Positions 56,834 through 64,000 are shown, counted from the stretch's first letter. The stretch is 64,000 nucleotides of DNA from Gammaproteobacteria bacterium (GCA_965277715.1 OZ255836.1:3040001-3104000), one strand, 5' to 3'. Translations and numbers: made by a program. The notes: a model not told the origin generated them from the sequence alone.

Positions 56834-59039
56834 ATGATAAAAAAAGAATGTAAAAACTACCCTGACCCAATAGTGCCAACTGCAAATAATATAGCGTGTT
56901 GGGATAGCGATGGCAGTATCGCCATAGTGACAAAACGCCTCAAGGAAATGTTTGTCGAAATGGGGCAGAAAACAAAAATTGAAAGAGGCCAACAACCTGC
57001 CGAACGTGCTGTTTTCAGAAAACAACATGGCGTCGCCTATGGCAACTTCGTCATCAACAAAGATATTCCGGGAAAATTTAAAGTAGGTATTTTTTCTAAA
57101 GATGAATATGAATGTGCTGTTCGGTTTTCCAGCGACACATCGCCAACATCCCCCGATTTACATACGACTATGGGGGTGGGTTTAAAACTCTTCGGCGTTG
57201 AAGGCCCCAAATTACTTGGGAAAGGAACCAACGCTGATTTTATTTTCCAGAATATTGACCGTTTTTTTGCACGCGATGCACAGCAAATGTGCAGTTTTAC
57301 TACCGCCGGTGCCGTAGACCATGATTATGACGCCTATATTGAAAAACACCCGAAATTAGCGCATGTTTTACACGCTATGGCCAAGGAAGAAGCGAGCTGT
57401 TTAAGCGCCAGCTATTGGGCCATTTTACCTTTTAAATTGGGTGATAATAATATTGTCAAATATCGCCTGATCCCTACAAAAGATACCGAGAGGGGCGCGC
57501 CTTTTGACAATAATAATTACCTCGCGCTTGACCTGGAACAACGTCTTCGCACCAAAGAGGCAAGGTTTCGTTTCGAGATCCAATTGAGAACGAACGACAA
57601 CACCATGCCATTAGATGATGCTCAAGTGGTTTGGAGTACTGAAGAAAGCCCTTACATCTGCATTGCTGAATTTACATTTACCACAACAGGATATCTGCAC
57701 CATAGGGCAGGCAGAGTTCGGCACTAATTTGTCTTTCAACATTTGGAGAACACTGGAAGCGCATCAGCCGTTGGGCTCTATTGCTGAAGTAAGAAAGCAG
57801 GTATACGCAGCAAGTGCAGAAGCCCGGCATCAGGCCAATGGTCAACAATTGCAGGAACCCAAAGAGATAAACCCGGCGTTCCAGGGAAATACAGATGAAG
57901 ACAGCCATTGTATTGTGAGAGCGGCTATCTATCCCCCTATAGGTGTAATGCGTGTTGGTAACAGTGAGAGCGAATACTTTATTGGGCCGCAAGTAGATAA
58001 CCCTGCACCAGAAACCGATGAATACGCTTACAGAGACAAAACCGGTGCGTTAAAACGCCAGGCGGCTGAATTTAGAATATATGGATTTAATGCAGCGGGA
58101 AAGGCGATTAAAGAATTAACCGCAAAAAATGCTGAGATCAAATGGCATTCGCATTTGGCCAACCAAAAATCCTCATGGTATGAATTTCAAATAGCATTGG
58201 ATATTCCCGAAGCGGCTGATGCACCCGCTTCCATGCTGCGTAATATCGATATAAAAGACAGAAGCTCACTGCTGATCGATGGGGGGCCACAAAGTATTTC
58301 CGGGTTGAACGTCAAAAATGGGCATCGTTTTGAAGGCAGGTTCCAATCCAAGCCCGTGTACTTAGGCGAAATGCGCACCGACAAAAAAGGGCGTTTAATT
58401 ATGCTGGGGGGGCATGGTAAGTCAGAGAATATTAATGGTGATATCGCCATTACTTTTGCCAACAATGAAGGTTGGTATGACGATATTTCAGACGGGCCAG
58501 TAACGGCTGATGTAGAGTACAAAGGAGTCAGGTTGAAGGTTGACCCTGCCTGGGTAATTTGTGCGCCGCCAGATTATGCACCCATGCAAAAATCGGTACG
58601 TACCATGTGGGATTTAATGCGTGATGTGTCTGTTCAGGCTGAGCTATTAGAACGACCGGCACGCCCTTCCTTCAGCAAAGACATTTTGCCCATCTTCGAA
58701 CGCATGACTAATCTGCAGTGGGTAAATGCGGGTTTTGCTGCGGCCTTTGGTTTCGGTGGCCAATTCAATTACACCACCCTGCAATGGGTGAAACGATTAA
58801 ATGACCCTTCTTCCGCCAATTATGAAATGCGCCGCACTATTTCCAATAATTTCCGACGCTTTAATGTTACAGGAGCTGAAGCGCCTCAATTATGGCCATG
58901 GTTATATGGCGATGCGATTAGCATTCCACCCACAGGTTCTGTTCGTCAGCACGCTACTTTATCCAATCTGCAGTTGGCGTTTCTCGATCAGTGGGTGGAG
59001 GGTGATTTTGGCGCTGATTTTATCGATATGAGCGGCTGC
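56834..59039 (+). pseudogene. catalase-fold domain fused to LodA/GoxA-family CTQ oxidase; 1-bp frameshift near 57670, C-terminus truncated
   Basis: RAVFRKQHG, VRFSS, DFIFQN in ORF1; PLGSIAEVRKQVY catalase end, then IYPPIGVMRVGNS, LKRQAAEFRIYG, NNEGWYDDISDGPV LodA motifs in ORF2. Confidence 0.85.
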
Positions 59040-59155
59040 GCTGTGCGACAACCGAGGATGGCATTCAATGCTGACCATTGATCCTGTGTTGTTGATGCCC
59101 CGTAACGCGCTTTAAACCGATCTTGATAGGCATGAACAACCTGTACAACGTCCAC
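59036..59155 (-). pseudogene. IS91-family transposase, N-terminal remnant
   Basis: VHAYQDRFKARYG...QWSALNAILGCRTAQ (start of the zinc-binding region) directly after the recombinase. Confidence 0.75.
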
Positions 59156-59156
59156 G

Positions 59157-60062
59157 CTACACCTCACCATCGAATTGAAGACGCAAACGTTGCACCAGAC
59201 GACTAATGACGTCATGGGTATTGTTTTGAGTGACATCGGTTAGCTGGGTATACAGCGCAGTGGTTTTGGGGCATTCATGGCCCATTTGCTGTTGAATGGC
59301 ACGCAGATGCAGACCTTCTTCGACCCGGTGTGCGCCATAGCAATGGCGTAGGCTGTGTGGGGTGATGGCCTTGTGAATACCATCGCTTTTGACAATCGCT
59401 TTGAACGACTTTTGCAGACTGCCGCGATCCATCACGTCCACCGCACAGCGTCTCGCCTCGGGTGTTTTACCTCCAGGAAAAATGAACCGGGGATGCCGGT
59501 GCGTTTTCCAATACTGGCGTAAGGCACTCAGTGTTACCGCCAGTAACACGACAAAACGATTCTTTTTGCCCTTGCCCAGGCGTACATGCACCTTCATACG
59601 CTCCCTGTCAATATCGCCAACTTGTAGATGCAACGTCTCGCCCAAGCGTAACCCCATGCTGTAGGCGGTTAAAATAAACATTTGGTAACACAACTCACGC
59701 GTGTTGTTGATCACCTGTTCAATCTCGCCTACCGACAGAATATCGGGCAGTACTTTCTCAATGGGCGGCTTGATGATATCGACCCACACCCATTTTTTGT
59801 TCAACACATGCCGGTAGAAGAATTGGAGGCCATTGCGGTCACACTTGATGGTGCTCCAGGAGTGACTTTTGATTAAAGCATCGAAATAGATTTTGATACC
59901 CTCGACACTGAGTCGATCCAAAGGGCGGTCATAAAAATCGACAATACGGCGCACGGCTCGCGCATAGGCATCAATCGTATTGGGCGCCTTGCCTTGGCGC
60001 TGTAATGCGTTAAGATGTTGTTGATACTGTGAATCGAGTTTTTTCTGTTGAATCTTGTTCAT
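59157..60062 (-). CDS. tyrosine recombinase of an IS91-associated element
   Basis: GLRLGE, GKGKK, HSLRH, MGH, TTALY catalytic motifs. Confidence 0.92.
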   Translation of the reverse strand: MNKIQQKKLDSQYQQHLNALQRQGKAPNTIDAYARAVRRIVDFYDRPLDRLSVEGIKIYFDALIKSHSWSTIKCDRNGLQFFYRHVLNKKWVWVDIIKPPIEKVLPDILSVGEIEQVINNTRELCYQMFILTAYSMGLRLGETLHLQVGDIDRERMKVHVRLGKGKKNRFVVLLAVTLSALRQYWKTHRHPRFIFPGGKTPEARRCAVDVMDRGSLQKSFKAIVKSDGIHKAITPHSLRHCYGAHRVEEGLHLRAIQQQMGHECPKTTALYTQLTDVTQNNTHDVISRLVQRLRLQFDGEV

Positions 60063-60159
60063 GTGAATCTTCCTCTTGTTGTCGGATTCCGGGTAGAGTC
60101 CGTAGAGGAAGTATTCACCTTATTTCATCGAAGGGCTTTTTCTGCCGCATAGCGGCTTC

Positions 60160-60239
60160 GTTCAACAAGGCCATTAAAAATCGCGCGTTTCACGCGCTGG
60201 ATTCGCACAAGTTGCTCGCCTTTTATGGCGGCGTTATCA
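60160..60239 (+). other. attC site 1 (hybrid R'' GTTCAAC)
   Basis: AAC...GCCAT[T]AAAA / TTTTATGGC...GTTATCA with an extrahelical base. Confidence 0.75.
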
Positions 60240-60284
60240 GCCGTAAGCTCAACATAAAATCAAGAGTAAAAAACAAATAATCTT

Positions 60285-61166
60285 ATGATCAATTTAGCTA
60301 AAACCTTATCCCATCTATCTGAAGACAGAGTAAGTGAATTAGAAGTCATCACTCAACGAATCGTGGGGACAGGTAAAGCTGAAATTGTGGTTCTTTTTGG
60401 TTCCTATGCCAGAGGAGATTACAAAGAACAGAGAGGGAAAACCAAAGGGAAAAAGAGTGATTATGATATTTTGATAGTCACCTCCGACTATAATAACCAA
60501 AAAGATTTACGTTCAGAGCTCAGGGAGATATTTCAGGATATTGGCATTGCTGTACAATTGATCGTTGAGGAAATTATTTTTGTTAATAACAGTTTAGAAG
60601 AAACTCAATATTTTTTCACTGATATTAAACGAGAAGGAAAAATTCTTTTTGATTCAGGCCAATATGAGCTCGCCGATTCTAAAGAATTGACACCGACTCG
60701 CAGGCGGGAAATTGCGGAAGCTGATTTTAAACAGTGGTTTAAGACAGCAAAAGGGGCGAATACAAATTATCAGAATAGCATTATACACAAAGATTTTGGT
60801 TGGGCTTCCTTTCATCTGCAACAAGTAGTTGAGATGTGTTATACCGCTATTGAAATGGTATTTGCTCATTACAATCCCCATGAGCACAATTTGCAAGTGT
60901 TACGAAGCCGAGTACTCCAGTTCGACAGCCGTGTCAAAACAGTGCTGCCTTACGAAACGGAAGAGCAGCAAGAACTTTTTGATTACCTCAACTTTGCCTA
61001 TATTGGAGGGCGCTATCGGAGTGAAGAAGAATTTCCGATCACCCAGGAAAAGCTGGATTACTGGAGCAATGAATCAAAAAAATTAATAGACCTGACTGAG
61101 GTTATTTGCAATGATCGAATTGAATGCCTCAAGCAGATTGAGCAAGAATTGAATATAAAAAGCTGA
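60285..61166 (+). CDS. fused nucleotidyltransferase (MNT)-HEPN protein, gene cassette
   Basis: LFGSYARGD..SDYDIL; ASFHLQQVVE, HNL, AYIGGRY. Confidence 0.88.
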   Translation: MINLAKTLSHLSEDRVSELEVITQRIVGTGKAEIVVLFGSYARGDYKEQRGKTKGKKSDYDILIVTSDYNNQKDLRSELREIFQDIGIAVQLIVEEIIFVNNSLEETQYFFTDIKREGKILFDSGQYELADSKELTPTRRREIAEADFKQWFKTAKGANTNYQNSIIHKDFGWASFHLQQVVEMCYTAIEMVFAHYNPHEHNLQVLRSRVLQFDSRVKTVLPYETEEQQELFDYLNFAYIGGRYRSEEEFPITQEKLDYWSNESKKLIDLTEVICNDRIECLKQIEQELNIKS

Positions 61167-61232
61167 TAACAAAAGTGTCAATTTGATGTGTTTTCGCCTC
61201 GCTTCAATGCACAAATTACACAGGCGTTATGT
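61164..61232 (+). other. attC site 2
   Basis: R'' TGATAAC is complementary to the cassette start GTTATCA; GTGT[C]AATTTG / CAAATTACAC; R' GTTATGT. Confidence 0.88.
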
Positions 61233-61253
61233 GGCTTAAGGGAATAGCAACTA

Positions 61254-61577
61254 ATGAAATATGAGTTAACGTTTGCCTCTAATGTCGATGAAAATCGTGT
61301 CGGTGCAGAAATCATTTGCAAGCGTTGGTAAAAATCTTTCTGGGAAGATGTTGCAATCATCTACAAAATAAACGGTGAGTTTGTCGTAGAGCAGCGTGAG
61401 TGCTTCAAGCAAACTAAGGAAGTAGCTAAATTAGTTGAAGCTGCGAAATTCGGCCTACAAAACTATATCAACGCTGAAGGTGTTGAGTTTGAAGAAGGCG
61501 CAATCAGAGCAGAGGTGGCTTTAGAATTGCTATTAAAAGAAGACGGTACAAGCATGGGAGTACAGTTTGAAATCTAA
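61254..61577 (+). pseudogene. orphan cassette gene (107 codons) with in-frame TAA at codon 26
   Basis: MKYELTFASNVDENRVGAEIICKRW*KSFWEDVAIIY...MGVQFEI* fills the cassette. Confidence 0.75.
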
Positions 61578-61585
61578 ACAAGGCC

Positions 61586-61655
61586 ACATAACCAGGCAAA
61601 GCACTGCCACTTCGCTCGGACGCGCCACCGCGCGCCCGTGTTTGCGGCGTTAGCG
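61586..61655 (+). other. attC site 3
   Basis: GCCACATAAC is complementary to the cassette start GTTATGTGGC; GCAAA[G]CAC / GTGTTTGC; R' GTTAGCG. Confidence 0.9.
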
Positions 61656-61658
61656 GTC

Positions 61659-61931
61659 TTAGTACTGACGGCTTTCTTGTACCTCTTTTGCAAGCCAAGC
61701 TTTTATAAGTGATTGATAAGGCATATCTCGTTTATTGGCTTCTACCTTAATACTGTCTAACAAACCTTGCGGTAGCCTTAGTGAAATAGTTTTAGTTGAA
61801 AGTTTAAGGTTAGGTAAAACTGCACGTTCAGCTCTACTTAAATCTAAATATTCACTCGAATCATTACTTTCCCAAAAGCCACGCTCTTCTTTTTCATTCT
61901 TAAAATTGGGTATTTTTTTAAGTTTCGTCAT
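61659..61931 (-). CDS. BrnA/CopG-like antitoxin
   Basis: EERGFWESND, TKTISLRLP, ANKRDMPYQSLIK. Confidence 0.9.
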   Translation of the reverse strand: MTKLKKIPNFKNEKEERGFWESNDSSEYLDLSRAERAVLPNLKLSTKTISLRLPQGLLDSIKVEANKRDMPYQSLIKAWLAKEVQESRQY

Positions 61932-62217
61932 AAGCCATCTTCTCTTTTTTGTGCATATCTCGCGCAGAAATCACACGTATTAACGTGTTCCCCTCTCTTA
62001 GAGTAAAAGCAATATGCAATTTTCTCGCATCATTAGTTTTACCGTAAGCATGGTATCGAGCTTCATGCCTACTGTGCTTTTCATCTACCAACAACAGCAA
62101 CGGGTCATTAAAAAATATTTGCTCTGCCTCTGCTTGGGTAACATTATGCTTTTCTTGGCTTTTTCTGGCATTACCATCATCCCAGTTAAAACCAATTATT
62201 TTAGTCAAATCAATCAT
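61918..62217 (-). CDS. brnT: BrnT family toxin
   Basis: FNWDDGNARK..KH.V, HS..E.R, IRVISAR. Confidence 0.92.
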   Translation of the reverse strand: MIDLTKIIGFNWDDGNARKSQEKHNVTQAEAEQIFFNDPLLLLVDEKHSRHEARYHAYGKTNDARKLHIAFTLREGNTLIRVISARDMHKKEKMAYDET

Positions 62218-62254
62218 ATTATGTATATTATCAAAATATACATTTTTATCAAAG

Positions 62255-62261
62255 TGCTAAC
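62255..62261 (+). other. R'' box of truncated attC site 4
   Basis: TGCTAAC pairs (1 mismatch) with the cassette start GTTAGCG; the rest of the attC is absent. Confidence 0.6.
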
Positions 62262-62321
62262 ATAAATATAAATGAAGGGACCAGATTAGTGATCTAGTAT
62301 AGGTTATGTCAATACCACCCC

Positions 62322-62862
62322 ATGCCAAGATCTCACCGTATAGAATATGAAAACGCCTTCTACCATATAATGAACCGTGGTCGGGAGCGTAAGACGGTTT
62401 TTCATAGCGAAGCTTACTATCAAGCGTTTCTCGCCACATTGACCGAAGCCGCAGAGCGTTTTCACGCCGTGATTCACGCTTATTGCCTAATGGGCAACCA
62501 CTACCACCTCACAGTTGTCCGAGTACAAAGAAAGCCAGAGTGGCGTTGATGTGTGGCCACAATTGCGGGAAAAAGTAGCCAGCAGTGTGATAGTAAAAAC
62601 GGTGGCAAATTGTTGCCGAGTGAGTGAAGGCAGTGTTTTGGATAGTCAAAGTAAAGGAGGTAGCGCGAACACTCCTCGCAAATTGACCATGTACTACTGC
62701 CAGCGGTTTGGTGATATGTTGTTAAAGGCAATTACTCAACATTTTGGGTTAAGTCACCCTGGTGGTGTGTCGAGTGCAATAGCTCGCGTCAAGAAAGAGC
62801 TAGACAAGGGAGAACTTAAAGAGGTGATGCATCAAATTGAAAATCAGCTAAATAGTAAATAA
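62322..62862 (+). pseudogene. RAYT/Y1 transposase with C-terminal DnaA-like HTH, internally deleted
   Basis: MPR..RIEYENAFYHIMNRG, HAYCLMGNHYHL; out-of-frame C-terminal PRKLTMYYCQ..HFG; ends CCTGACCCTT. Confidence 0.8.
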
Positions 62863-62879
62863 CTTGCCTGACCCTTTTG

Positions 62880-63254
62880 ATCTTCTCAAGCATGATCAGT
62901 TATTGACAGCAAGAGCCTGGGCGATAAAAGAACTCTTTCGTGATTTTTGGATGTATAAGACAGCAGGTTGGGCAAAGCGTTTCTTTAGCGCATGGTATTC
63001 GTGGGCAAGTCGGTGCCGATTGGACAGTATAAAGAAAGTGGCAAAGATGATAAAAGCTCACTTGTCGAATATATTGACATGGTTTAAGTACACAATAAGC
63101 AATGCAGTGTCAGAGGGTTTGAATTCAAAAATTCAGACAGTCAAATCGAATGCAAGAGGATTTCGTTCGTTTGAAAGTTACCGGCGGAGTATTTTGTTTT
63201 ACTGCGGAAAGCTGGATATGGAACCAGTGGCTTCACAATAATCGGGGAAGAACC
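62880..63254 (+). mobile_element. ISL3-family transposase 3' fragment with right terminal repeat
   Basis: TARAWAIKE, SNAVSEGLNSKIQ, ARGFRSF; end GGGGAAGAACC. Confidence 0.85.
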
Positions 63255-63409
63255 AGAAAAACTATGAAGAGCCATAAATGAAAACCATTAATTCAGTAGA
63301 TCAATTATTTAAAGTTGAGTTTAAGCGGCGTAATGGGAAACGCCGTGTAGCGACAGCCTACAAAAAAAAGAAAAAAAGAGAAAAAAAGGGGTCAATCGTA
63401 TTTAGTATT

Positions 63410-64000
63410 TTACAAACAATTGAAAACCTGCTCAAACACGCCCTTCAAGCTGCCGTCTGACAGCCCACTCTTTACATAATCAATTGCAGGAGAAAGGCTA
63501 CTAACACGACTATATCCAAACATATCAACCAGCGTTTTTAACGGCATATCTCCCAATTGCTGACAACAATATATCGCTACTTTACGAGGCAGATTCGCCC
63601 GTTGTCTCCCCCGCTGTCGCGTAAGTACATCACTCGTGTTAACGCCAAACACCGCTGCCACTGCATCGACTATAGCTGCACCGTTTGGCTTGTCCGTCAC
63701 AATACGGGACAAGTCCCCCGATATGTACATCGACTCCCGGTTTTCGGCAATATACGTCTTGAAGGATTTGTCACCCAGCATCGTCGTCACATTGCCTTTG
63801 TTATAAAAACGGCCAATGTCCTCATCAATACCTTGACCAACATATGCCTTATAAGCAACGTAACGTTGTTTAGCACCGAGTGCACTATAGGTTGCCTCTC
63901 GATACAACCATTCCGGTGCTTTGGCTTGGTTGATGTAAGCGTGGTAACTCGACCAGGAATAGCTATCGAGCTTATCCGCTGTTACACTCTTTGACTTCTA
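63410..64000 (-). mobile_element. second RAYT/Y1 transposase, C-terminal part (runs off window end)
   Basis: YSWSSYHAY motif; NLPRKVAIYCCQ HTH domain paralogous to 62515-62862. Confidence 0.75.

Follow-up and report, generated by a model that had tools for sequence, protein, structure and literature searches.

A probable decayed copy of an attC-targeting IS91-type element beside a gammaproteobacterial cassette array, and the insertion sites of its complete relatives

Integron cassette arrays are, to our knowledge, thought to be rearranged by the integron integrase IntI alone, and the only specialised invaders of their attC sites that we know of are the IS1111-attC elements and the group IIC introns. 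A stretch of 64,000 nucleotides (nt) from a Gammaproteobacteria bacterium (GCA_965277715.1 OZ255836.1:3040001-3104000; this whole stretch is referred to as the window, and all positions are counted from its first letter) raises the question of whether other elements also single out these sites. It contains a short array of three cassettes, bordered on the left by a tyrosine recombinase gene with the remnant of an IS91-type transposase gene, and on the right by a gene with a Y1_Tnp domain. A sequence-only reading of the window had proposed that the two outer sites of the array, attC1 and attC4, were broken at the AAC of their R'' boxes by two different HUH-transposase elements, both of which target or exploit attC hairpins. 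Here, we describe what became of this proposal: the observation is partly confirmed and the interpretation partly supported, in that the left element belongs to a family whose ends are enriched at the R'' AAC of attC sites, whereas no such preference was found for the Y1 gene.

The left element (59036-60166) is, with a probability that we put at roughly 0.8, a decayed copy of an attC-targeting mobile element, whose complete relatives insert at AA|C of the R'' box and in inverted orientation; in this copy, the transposase gene is cut at about codon 40 and the element's own attC-like site is lost. Its main part is a tyrosine recombinase of 301 amino acids (aa), encoded in one open frame on the minus strand (59157-60062; Pfam Phage_integrase, 91.6 bits, and Phage_int_SAM_4). 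The best NCBIfam match of this protein is the integron integrase model TIGR02249, with 138 bits against a cut-off of 265 and in two stretches, which separate where IntI has its extra domain; it is therefore IntI-like, not IntI. On NF011946 it reaches 82 bits against 435, again short of the curated IntI score. The transposase remnant (59036-59155, minus strand, about 40 codons) starts at the integrase stop, a gene position that agrees with the complete elements, and is all that the window keeps of what, judged from the relatives, would have been a Y2 HUH enzyme with an N-terminal zinc-binding domain. Its residues 1-37 align with residues 1-35 and 1-38 of the transposases of loci L019 and L176, respectively (BLASTP E 0.019 and 3e-4, single comparisons), and Pfam recognises no family in it.

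The integrase-proximal end of the element consists of a subterminal hairpin, GCCGC-ATA-GCGGC (60144-60156; -5.9 kcal/mol, z -2.07), and a terminal inverted repeat, GCGGCTTCGTTCAAC (60152-60166), which ends in GTTCAAC (60160-60166; GTTC at 60160-60163 and AAC at 60164-60166). All three parts that the sequence-only reading had named, the hairpin, the GTTC and the AAC, are present. In the segment GCCGC-ATA-GCGGC-TTC-GTTC (60144-60163), one subterminal palindrome stands next to a cleavage site of the GTTC type, the arrangement given for the IS91-family terIS in PMC13181058. Beyond it, the terminus GCGGCTTCGTYCAAC adjoins the body of attC1, with the arm carrying the extra base turned towards the element (60152-60239), as is characteristic of the attC-targeting family.

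Homologues of the recombinase (E <=1e-50) are present in 9 of 400 sampled gammaproteobacterial genomes, and a protein search of genome contigs yielded 5 loci. Of the 16 distinct loci found by protein, 12 have a 24-nt terminus (hairpin, TTC, GTYCAAC) ahead of the recombinase gene; the hairpin is kept, with variable loops, L004 has CTTG where the others have GTYC, and similarity among the elements stops exactly after CAAC. Because similarity ends at this point, the AAC ascribed to attC1 is also the last three bases of the terminus. This revises the first interpretation: as GTTCAAC in its entirety is the conserved element terminus, attC1 cannot be read as a site torn next to a GTTC target. The GTYC is instead part of the inverted repeat of the element, a repeat similar to the terIS described in PMC13181058.

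Complete relatives are about 2.4 kb long and encode an IntI/Xer-like tyrosine recombinase and an IS91 transposase, and they carry an attC-like hairpin of their own, which we name attE here. In gene orientation, their parts follow each other as TTGRAC-GAAGCCGC-loop-GCGGCA, the recombinase gene, the IS91-type Y2 transposase gene, a AAAAAGATATTT box, GGGCTT-GTYCAAC and attE, which closes with a G. The two genes overlap and are labelled 'site-specific integrase' and 'IS91 family transposase' in RefSeq; the transposase scores 362 bits on the IS91 family model NF033538 and has Y2_Tnp and Zn_Tnp_IS91 domains. A strict pattern for the second inverted repeat matched little, and the distal end was then located from the transposase stop. 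Downstream of the transposase gene, this revealed the conserved AAAAAGATATTT box followed by GGGCTTGTYCAAC, the inverted partner of the integrase-proximal terminus, so that the ends of the element are inverted repeats of 13-15 bp. Directly after GGGCTTGTYCAAC comes attE. This conserved hairpin spans about 50 nt, has GTT at its end and shows the architecture of an attC site, with R''/R' boxes, an L-box stem and, in gene orientation, an extra base in the 5' arm. In an alignment of 25 sequences, 96.8% of the stem cells are paired, as against 30-40% when the partner is slid. Of the 12 stem pairs, 7 have changed on both sides, and none of 500 shuffles reaches the covariation score. The elements also appear to be mobile: in nine pairs of ends the inside is at least 93% identical and the flanks are 23-35% identical, and near-identical ends with unrelated flanks therefore indicate recent movement.

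Two further features of the family may be mentioned. In 24 loci (L011, L014, L021-L024, L027, L030, L054, L058, L060, L066, L068, L070, L073, L077, L083, L085, L088, L097, L114, L129, L133 and L136) the frame of the integrase gene changes at a conserved run of 7-9 A (..ATTAAAAAAAAG..) at about codon 228, just before the C-terminal catalytic part, which, judged from the sequence, may reflect programmed slippage; the integrase gene of the window has no such run and is a single open frame. In addition, L089 contains a miniature element of 372 nt (L089:18-389), with both termini and attE and no genes, beside one inverted cassette and an attC; the contig (1183 nt) repeats its first 113 nt at its end and is thus either a circle or a tandem.

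Where complete relatives can be placed, they sit exactly at AA|C of the R'' box of a resident attC, and their orientation is always opposite to that of the array. The attC body receives a new GTYCAAC from the integrase-proximal repeat, and the old R'' remains beside attE. In L019, the R'' box GTTACACCTAAC at the attE junction matches the start of its cassette, TTAGGTGTAAC, over 11 nt, and the typical attC body of that array (ATCGCAATCAACC...GGTTATTGCGGGCGTT, intact at L019 2410-2497) follows the other terminus of the element. A second example is found on the Escherichia coli IncC plasmid NZ_LT985243.1, in which an inverted element lies between aadA1 and qacEdelta1 of a class 1 integron. Its attE-side junction reads ...AAATAATGTCTAAC|attE, splitting the aadA1 attC as TGTCTAAC|attE, and its other junction reads ...GTTCAAC|AATTCGTTCAAGCC...; we take the sequences at the two junctions to be the two halves of the aadA1 attC. 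The L019 and aadA1 junctions share AAC only (CCT|AAC and GTCT|AAC). In PLSDB, no near-identical copies of the plasmid's element were found, save for a match of 248 nt in a Shewanella plasmid. The pairing of an old R'' with its own cassette start extends to other loci: in 9 of 23 loci, the nine bases that follow attE are found again at the start of a cassette 340-654 nt away, compared with 3 matches for 230 control 9-mers.

The preference for attC was quantified on a larger set of ends. A search of metagenome contigs with the end pattern returned at least 120 stretches, and metagenome and genome ends together gave 118 distinct flanks of at least 140 nt, which were compared with 800 random CAAC anchors from the same loci. 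Energy-based and symmetric-pair attC scores separated flanks from controls poorly and were replaced by a score for the pairing of the two attC arms. Among the matches listed, 38 of the 118 flanks reach an arm score of at least 14, as against 35 of the 800 controls (Fisher p 1e-17), and 53 reach at least 10, as against 78 controls (Fisher p 8e-19); many low-scoring flanks are attC by eye, and the flank counts are therefore lower bounds. The resident sites are also oriented. In the 39 flanks with a score of at least 12, the extra base is in the element-side arm only in 31, in the far arm only in none, in neither in 3 and in both in 5, and swapping the arms in the algorithm turns the marker to 30 to 0. 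From the 31 to 0 split it follows that the resident attC always turns its R''/L'' side to the integrase-proximal end. The enrichment at R'' AAC that the sequence-only reading had suggested looking for is therefore strongly positive for the recombinase/IS91 ends. As a separate observation, the far side of the element-bearing attC carries a group II intron start or an ltrA gene in L014 (flank after 2227), L136 and L177 (L177:1682-3154), which places two kinds of attC invader at one site.

Several points weigh against this interpretation of the left element. About half of the ends adjoin sequence that is not clearly attC by arm score (e.g. L179 and L020), from which it follows that the target rule is a preference or that some of the sites are unusual. 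The metagenome pattern itself forced CAAC at the end, leaving the flank free, and the conservation of AAC thus rests on the smaller set found by protein. The arm score is home-made and misses many sites that are attC-like by eye, and MAFFT alignments of 28, then 18, flanks were structurally inconsistent and gave no attC covariance (Infernal) model. As regards the window, the similarity of the transposase remnant to IS91 transposases is weak, and the distal end of the element is gone, which means that the geometry of its insertion is taken from the relatives. Finally, the enzyme to which strand exchange is assigned below is itself inferred.

A mechanism can be proposed that would account for these products. 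The transposase would make a single-stranded circle of the bottom strand, and an intermediate of this type, a bottom-strand single-stranded circle, is the functional one for the IS91 family according to PMC13181058. Within the circle, the inverted repeats of the two ends would anneal on either side of attE, present as its bottom strand, to form one long attC-like hairpin. The element's recombinase would then carry out a strand exchange at AA|C between this hairpin and the target attC, folded from its top strand, the equivalent of what IntI does on bottom strands. Such an exchange would yield the arrangement seen in the relatives, in which the old R'' adjoins attE, the resident body has received the new GTYCAAC and the element is inverted. 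The assignment of this exchange to the IntI-like recombinase is putative. In the window, the element would have inserted into attC1, and everything past about codon 40 of the transposase gene would later have been lost at the junction with a LodA-like gene, a loss that also removed attE and the old R'' together with the cassette ahead of them. No attE hairpin or old R'' is present at the transposase-distal end in the window; to the left of 59036 lies the LodA-like gene (56834-57727 and 57615-59081, in overlapping frames), which has LodA_N as its only domain and is 3'-truncated, being cut at about 59036 by the remnant junction. The frame of the transposase remnant continues into this gene. The window's copy is a dead remnant.

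On a more tentative level, which we regard as possible but short of probable, the family may represent a second, IntI-independent recombination system acting on attC. The element would be a self-mobile 'cassette mimic', in which the IS91 transposase supplies the circle, whose attC hairpin the IntI-like recombinase would pair with the top strand at a resident attC; insertion would then occur at R'' and in the orientation avoided by IntI. Together with miniatures like that of L089, these elements could shuffle or carry neighbouring cassettes, and they may mark an evolutionary link between IS91 and integrons.

Of the other explanations, the one that survives best, although we consider it unlikely, is that the IS91-type HUH transposase alone selects and cuts the attC hairpin and that the recombinase is an accessory, e.g. 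in resolution or regulation. The canonical elements IS91, IS801 and IS1294 share with the family an HUH Y2 transposase, single-stranded circles and an end with one subterminal palindrome by GTTC or GTCC (PMC13181058), and the integrase-proximal end with its GTTC/GTCC, as well as the CTTG of L004 in the GTYC position, would fit a transposase of this kind. However, the canonical elements have no inverted repeats and no recombinase and insert next to GTTC or CTTG, whereas the family has inverted repeats at its ends and a folded attC as its site, and its targets share AAC only: the target bases are not GTTC or CTTG but GTCT|AAC in aadA1 and CCT|AAC in L019, AAC alone being common to them. Moreover, the inverted repeats double as R boxes around a covarying attC-like hairpin, the type of substrate used by IntI-like recombinases, and the recombinase has the integron integrase model as its best family match.

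The array into which the left element would have inserted is real, as are its three cassettes and attC1-3. It was first read as three cassettes whose starts match their own R'' boxes, and this holds for 3 of 3. attC1 (60164-60239, plus strand) comprises the resident body and the R' box GTTATCA (60233-60239), which matches the R'' of attC2; its own R'' AAC is the last three bases of the element. Cassette 1 (60234-61226, plus) carries a fused nucleotidyltransferase/HEPN gene (60285-61166; Pfam HEPN, Polbeta and NTP_transf_2), and its start TTATCAG (60234) pairs with its R'' CTGATAAC (61163-61170), which belongs to attC2 (61163-61232, plus; R' GTTATGT). Cassette 2 (61227-61649, plus) holds an open reading frame (ORF) of 107 codons (61254-61577), which has a single in-frame TAA, at codon 26; the cassette start TTATGTGGC (61227) pairs with R'' GCCACATAAC (61583-61592) of attC3 (61583-61655, plus; R' GTTAGCG). 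Cassette 3 (61650-62261, plus) contains brnT (61918-62217, minus) and a brnA/CopG antitoxin gene (61659-61931, minus; Pfam BrnT_toxin and CopG_antitoxin for the pair), and its start TTAGC (61650) pairs with R'' GCTAAC (62256-62261). In attC1-3 the boxes conform to RYYYAAC and GTTRRRY spaced 50-140 nt apart (GTTCAAC...GTTATCA, TGATAAC...GTTATGT and ACATAAC...GTTAGCG), and the imperfect inner repeats L''/L' have an extra base (T, C and G, respectively) in the 5' arm when read on the plus strand; as all three carry it there, the array is plus-oriented. Their arm scores are 14, 16 and 12, the last being reached by 5.2% of random CAAC anchors, and their minimum free energy (MFE) folds are no better than those of shuffles (z -1.27, +0.26 and -0.70).

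At its right end, the array stops: the R'' box TGCTAAC (62255-62261) closes cassette 3 and is not followed by an attC body, and attC4 is reduced to this box, its arm score of 7 being background and no R' following in register. A short intact attC4 with the R' GTTATGT at 62303 was considered and rejected, as the arms fail to pair in register. Next to the box lies a segment (62262-62321, plus) of an A-rich stretch, GGGACCAG and a hairpin (62277-62297), which is the diverged left end of a Y1 element, and which is followed by an internally deleted gene of Y1_Tnp/DnaA_C-type with a helix-turn-helix (HTH) domain (62322-62862, plus; N-terminal part to 62509 and C-terminal part, in another frame, at 62515-62862). 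Pfam finds Y1_Tnp in the N-terminal 75 aa only (30.5 bits, threshold 23), and Bac_DnaA_C at 26.7 bits is under its cut-off of 31.5; the deletion joint at 62508/9 coincides with loose contig ends in three of the metagenome runs introduced below, and the gene is a pseudogene. An inverted copy of the Y1 end motif (..AAAAGGGTCAGGCAAGTTATTT), compared with a loose-end consensus, lies at 62857-62878 (minus), followed by a 5'-truncated, C-terminal fragment of an ISL3 transposase gene (62864-63241, plus; Pfam DDE_Tnp_ISL3, profile positions 136-239 of 240) and a second DnaA_C-type gene of the Y1 family that runs towards the end of the window (63410-64000, minus; Bac_DnaA_C, 34.8 bits). In one of the sponge metagenome runs, the contig depths of the ISL3 fragment add up to as much as about 220,000, which makes it an extremely abundant repeat there.

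Could the Y1/RAYT-type element also target the R'' AAC and have removed the attC4 body? We consider this improbable. The start of the gene about 60 nt after TGCTAAC (ATG at 62322) is as first read, only 15 nt separate the AAC from the GGGACCAG hairpin end, and contigs from X1, X2 and X6 read through the junction. The family, present in 70 of 400 sampled genomes (a tally that includes one unpublished genome, G308, which contributed to this count only), is multi-copy, and inverted hairpin motifs of the GGGGTCA type flank the window's gene. It is also mobile, as follows from several tandem truncated copies, and L150 has GGCTAAC 18 nt before its GGGGTCA. However, among 35 homologous copies in 30 loci, which have in common an A-rich run, GGGGTCA and a hairpin located 45-60 nt ahead of the ATG, CTAAC occurs at a window-like distance in L150 alone (1/35) and no common target was seen; a preference like that of the left element is thus not supported here. 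The other side of the Y1 element is the ISL3 fragment and not the attC4 body, and its two flanks are therefore not the halves of one site. In this family the left boundary is formed by an A-rich run that varies between copies, which makes it impossible to assign the join to the AAC, and attC4 can break anywhere in 62262-62276; a break at the AAC, or one made by the Y1 element, is not borne out. The right edge (62262-64000) is unrelated debris, made up of a deleted Y1/DnaA_C-type element, an ISL3 fragment and a second Y1-type gene, and the attC4 body was lost there in a rearrangement of some kind.

The Y1 family has some features of its own. In L146-L175, Y1_Tnp/DnaA_C-type genes have GGGGTCA plus a hairpin upstream, and the window has the motif on both sides in inverted orientation (62277-62297 and 62857-62878), so that these genes and hairpins may be a RAYT/REP-like pair. 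The Y1_Tnp domain and the flanking inverted hairpin motifs with their GGGGTCA core are shared with RAYT and IS200-IS605 elements, whereas the C-terminal DnaA_C-like HTH and the tandem truncated copies are not. Such tandem copies occur in L147, L169, L170 and L171, in which a fresh GGGGTCA end follows directly after the upstream copy; L147 and L171 retain little of this upstream copy beyond the HUH-motif codons, L170 somewhat more, and the deletion in the window's copy starts at the same point as in the tandem copies (62509).

Returning to the left element, an ordinary integron cassette that carries an integrase and a transposase gene and is moved by the IntI of its host is an explanation that we regard as very improbable. 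In its own orientation the element obeys the cassette rule, with a start TTGRAC, its own R'' GTYCAAC and attE behind, and a passage of PMC9229058 calls ISShvi3 beside an attC 'a new gene cassette structure'. Like IntI, the element uses a tyrosine recombinase, one with IntI as its nearest curated model, and joins at a conserved AAC/GTT triplet. In contrast, IntI inserts at G|TT of R' and in array orientation, whereas here the join is at R'', on the top strand of the target, with the marker at 31 to 0 in the opposite sense, and the enzyme travels with its site and a transposase. Copies are also found at non-attC sites (L179). Furthermore, a tblastn search of the 64 kb with an IntI1 fragment and the window's recombinase as queries matched 59157-60062 only, and with no second tyrosine recombinase, the array within the window is a short attC cluster without an integron integrase; a complete integron, with intI and attI beside the array, is not seen in these 64 kb.

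That the junctions are assembly chimeras at repeats is hardly credible: although contigs of X6 break off at 60141-60170 and at several places beyond 62340, at the onset of repeats, the stretch is contained in sponge-metagenome runs (X labels) of four studies, and both junctions are bridged, the left by a single 9.8-kb contig of X1 that covers 58810-61713 with 14 differences, by two overlapping contigs of X2 over the same interval and by X3 over 59954-61713, and the right, including the attC4 R'' and the Y1 start, by contigs of X1, X2 and X6 over 61849-62369. X6 has no differences from the window and may be its source sample; the other runs differ by single-nucleotide polymorphisms (SNPs). The GroEL sequences of five genomes compared with that of the window's organism were all 76-79% identical, and none of the five is thus a close relative. 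A minor contig of X6 joins 60167 to 61594, i.e. the element terminus to the attC3 body, skipping cassettes 1 and 2; with a depth of 5.5 against 281 and 26 nt on its short side, this join is too weak to be used.

The gene pair of the family is not new. IS91-family insertion sequences with an upstream tyrosine recombinase gene have the same pair, and ISShvi3, ISSod25, ISSde12 and ISAzo26 are presumably the IS91 members with an integrase in ISfinder. As regards elements specialised on attC, the family resembles the IS1111-attC group (IS110 family) and the group IIC-attC introns. The former have a DEDD transposase and the latter are ribozymes with a reverse transcriptase, and their insertion points differ from that of the element. 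Both are mentioned in PMC9229058, the introns also in the abstract of PMC3001079, and the former source names ISShvi3 and notes one copy of it 'adjacent to an attC site'. In a literature search that did not extend to ISfinder and TnPedia, we did not find the target rule (R'' AA|C, inverted), the element-borne attC-like hairpin or the use of inverted repeats as R boxes described, the one passing mention being that in PMC9229058.

If the proposed reading is true, the family would be a third invader of attC sites, with its own IntI-like recombinase and attC-like site and using the R'' side of the target. It would account for 'orphan' recombinases in the middle of arrays, and strand choice in the recombination of folded attC sites would become testable. 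For annotation, copies of the element split attC sites and create cassette-like units, and one relative resides in a clinical class 1 integron. The copy in the window, itself dead, would be valuable as a further independent instance of the family.

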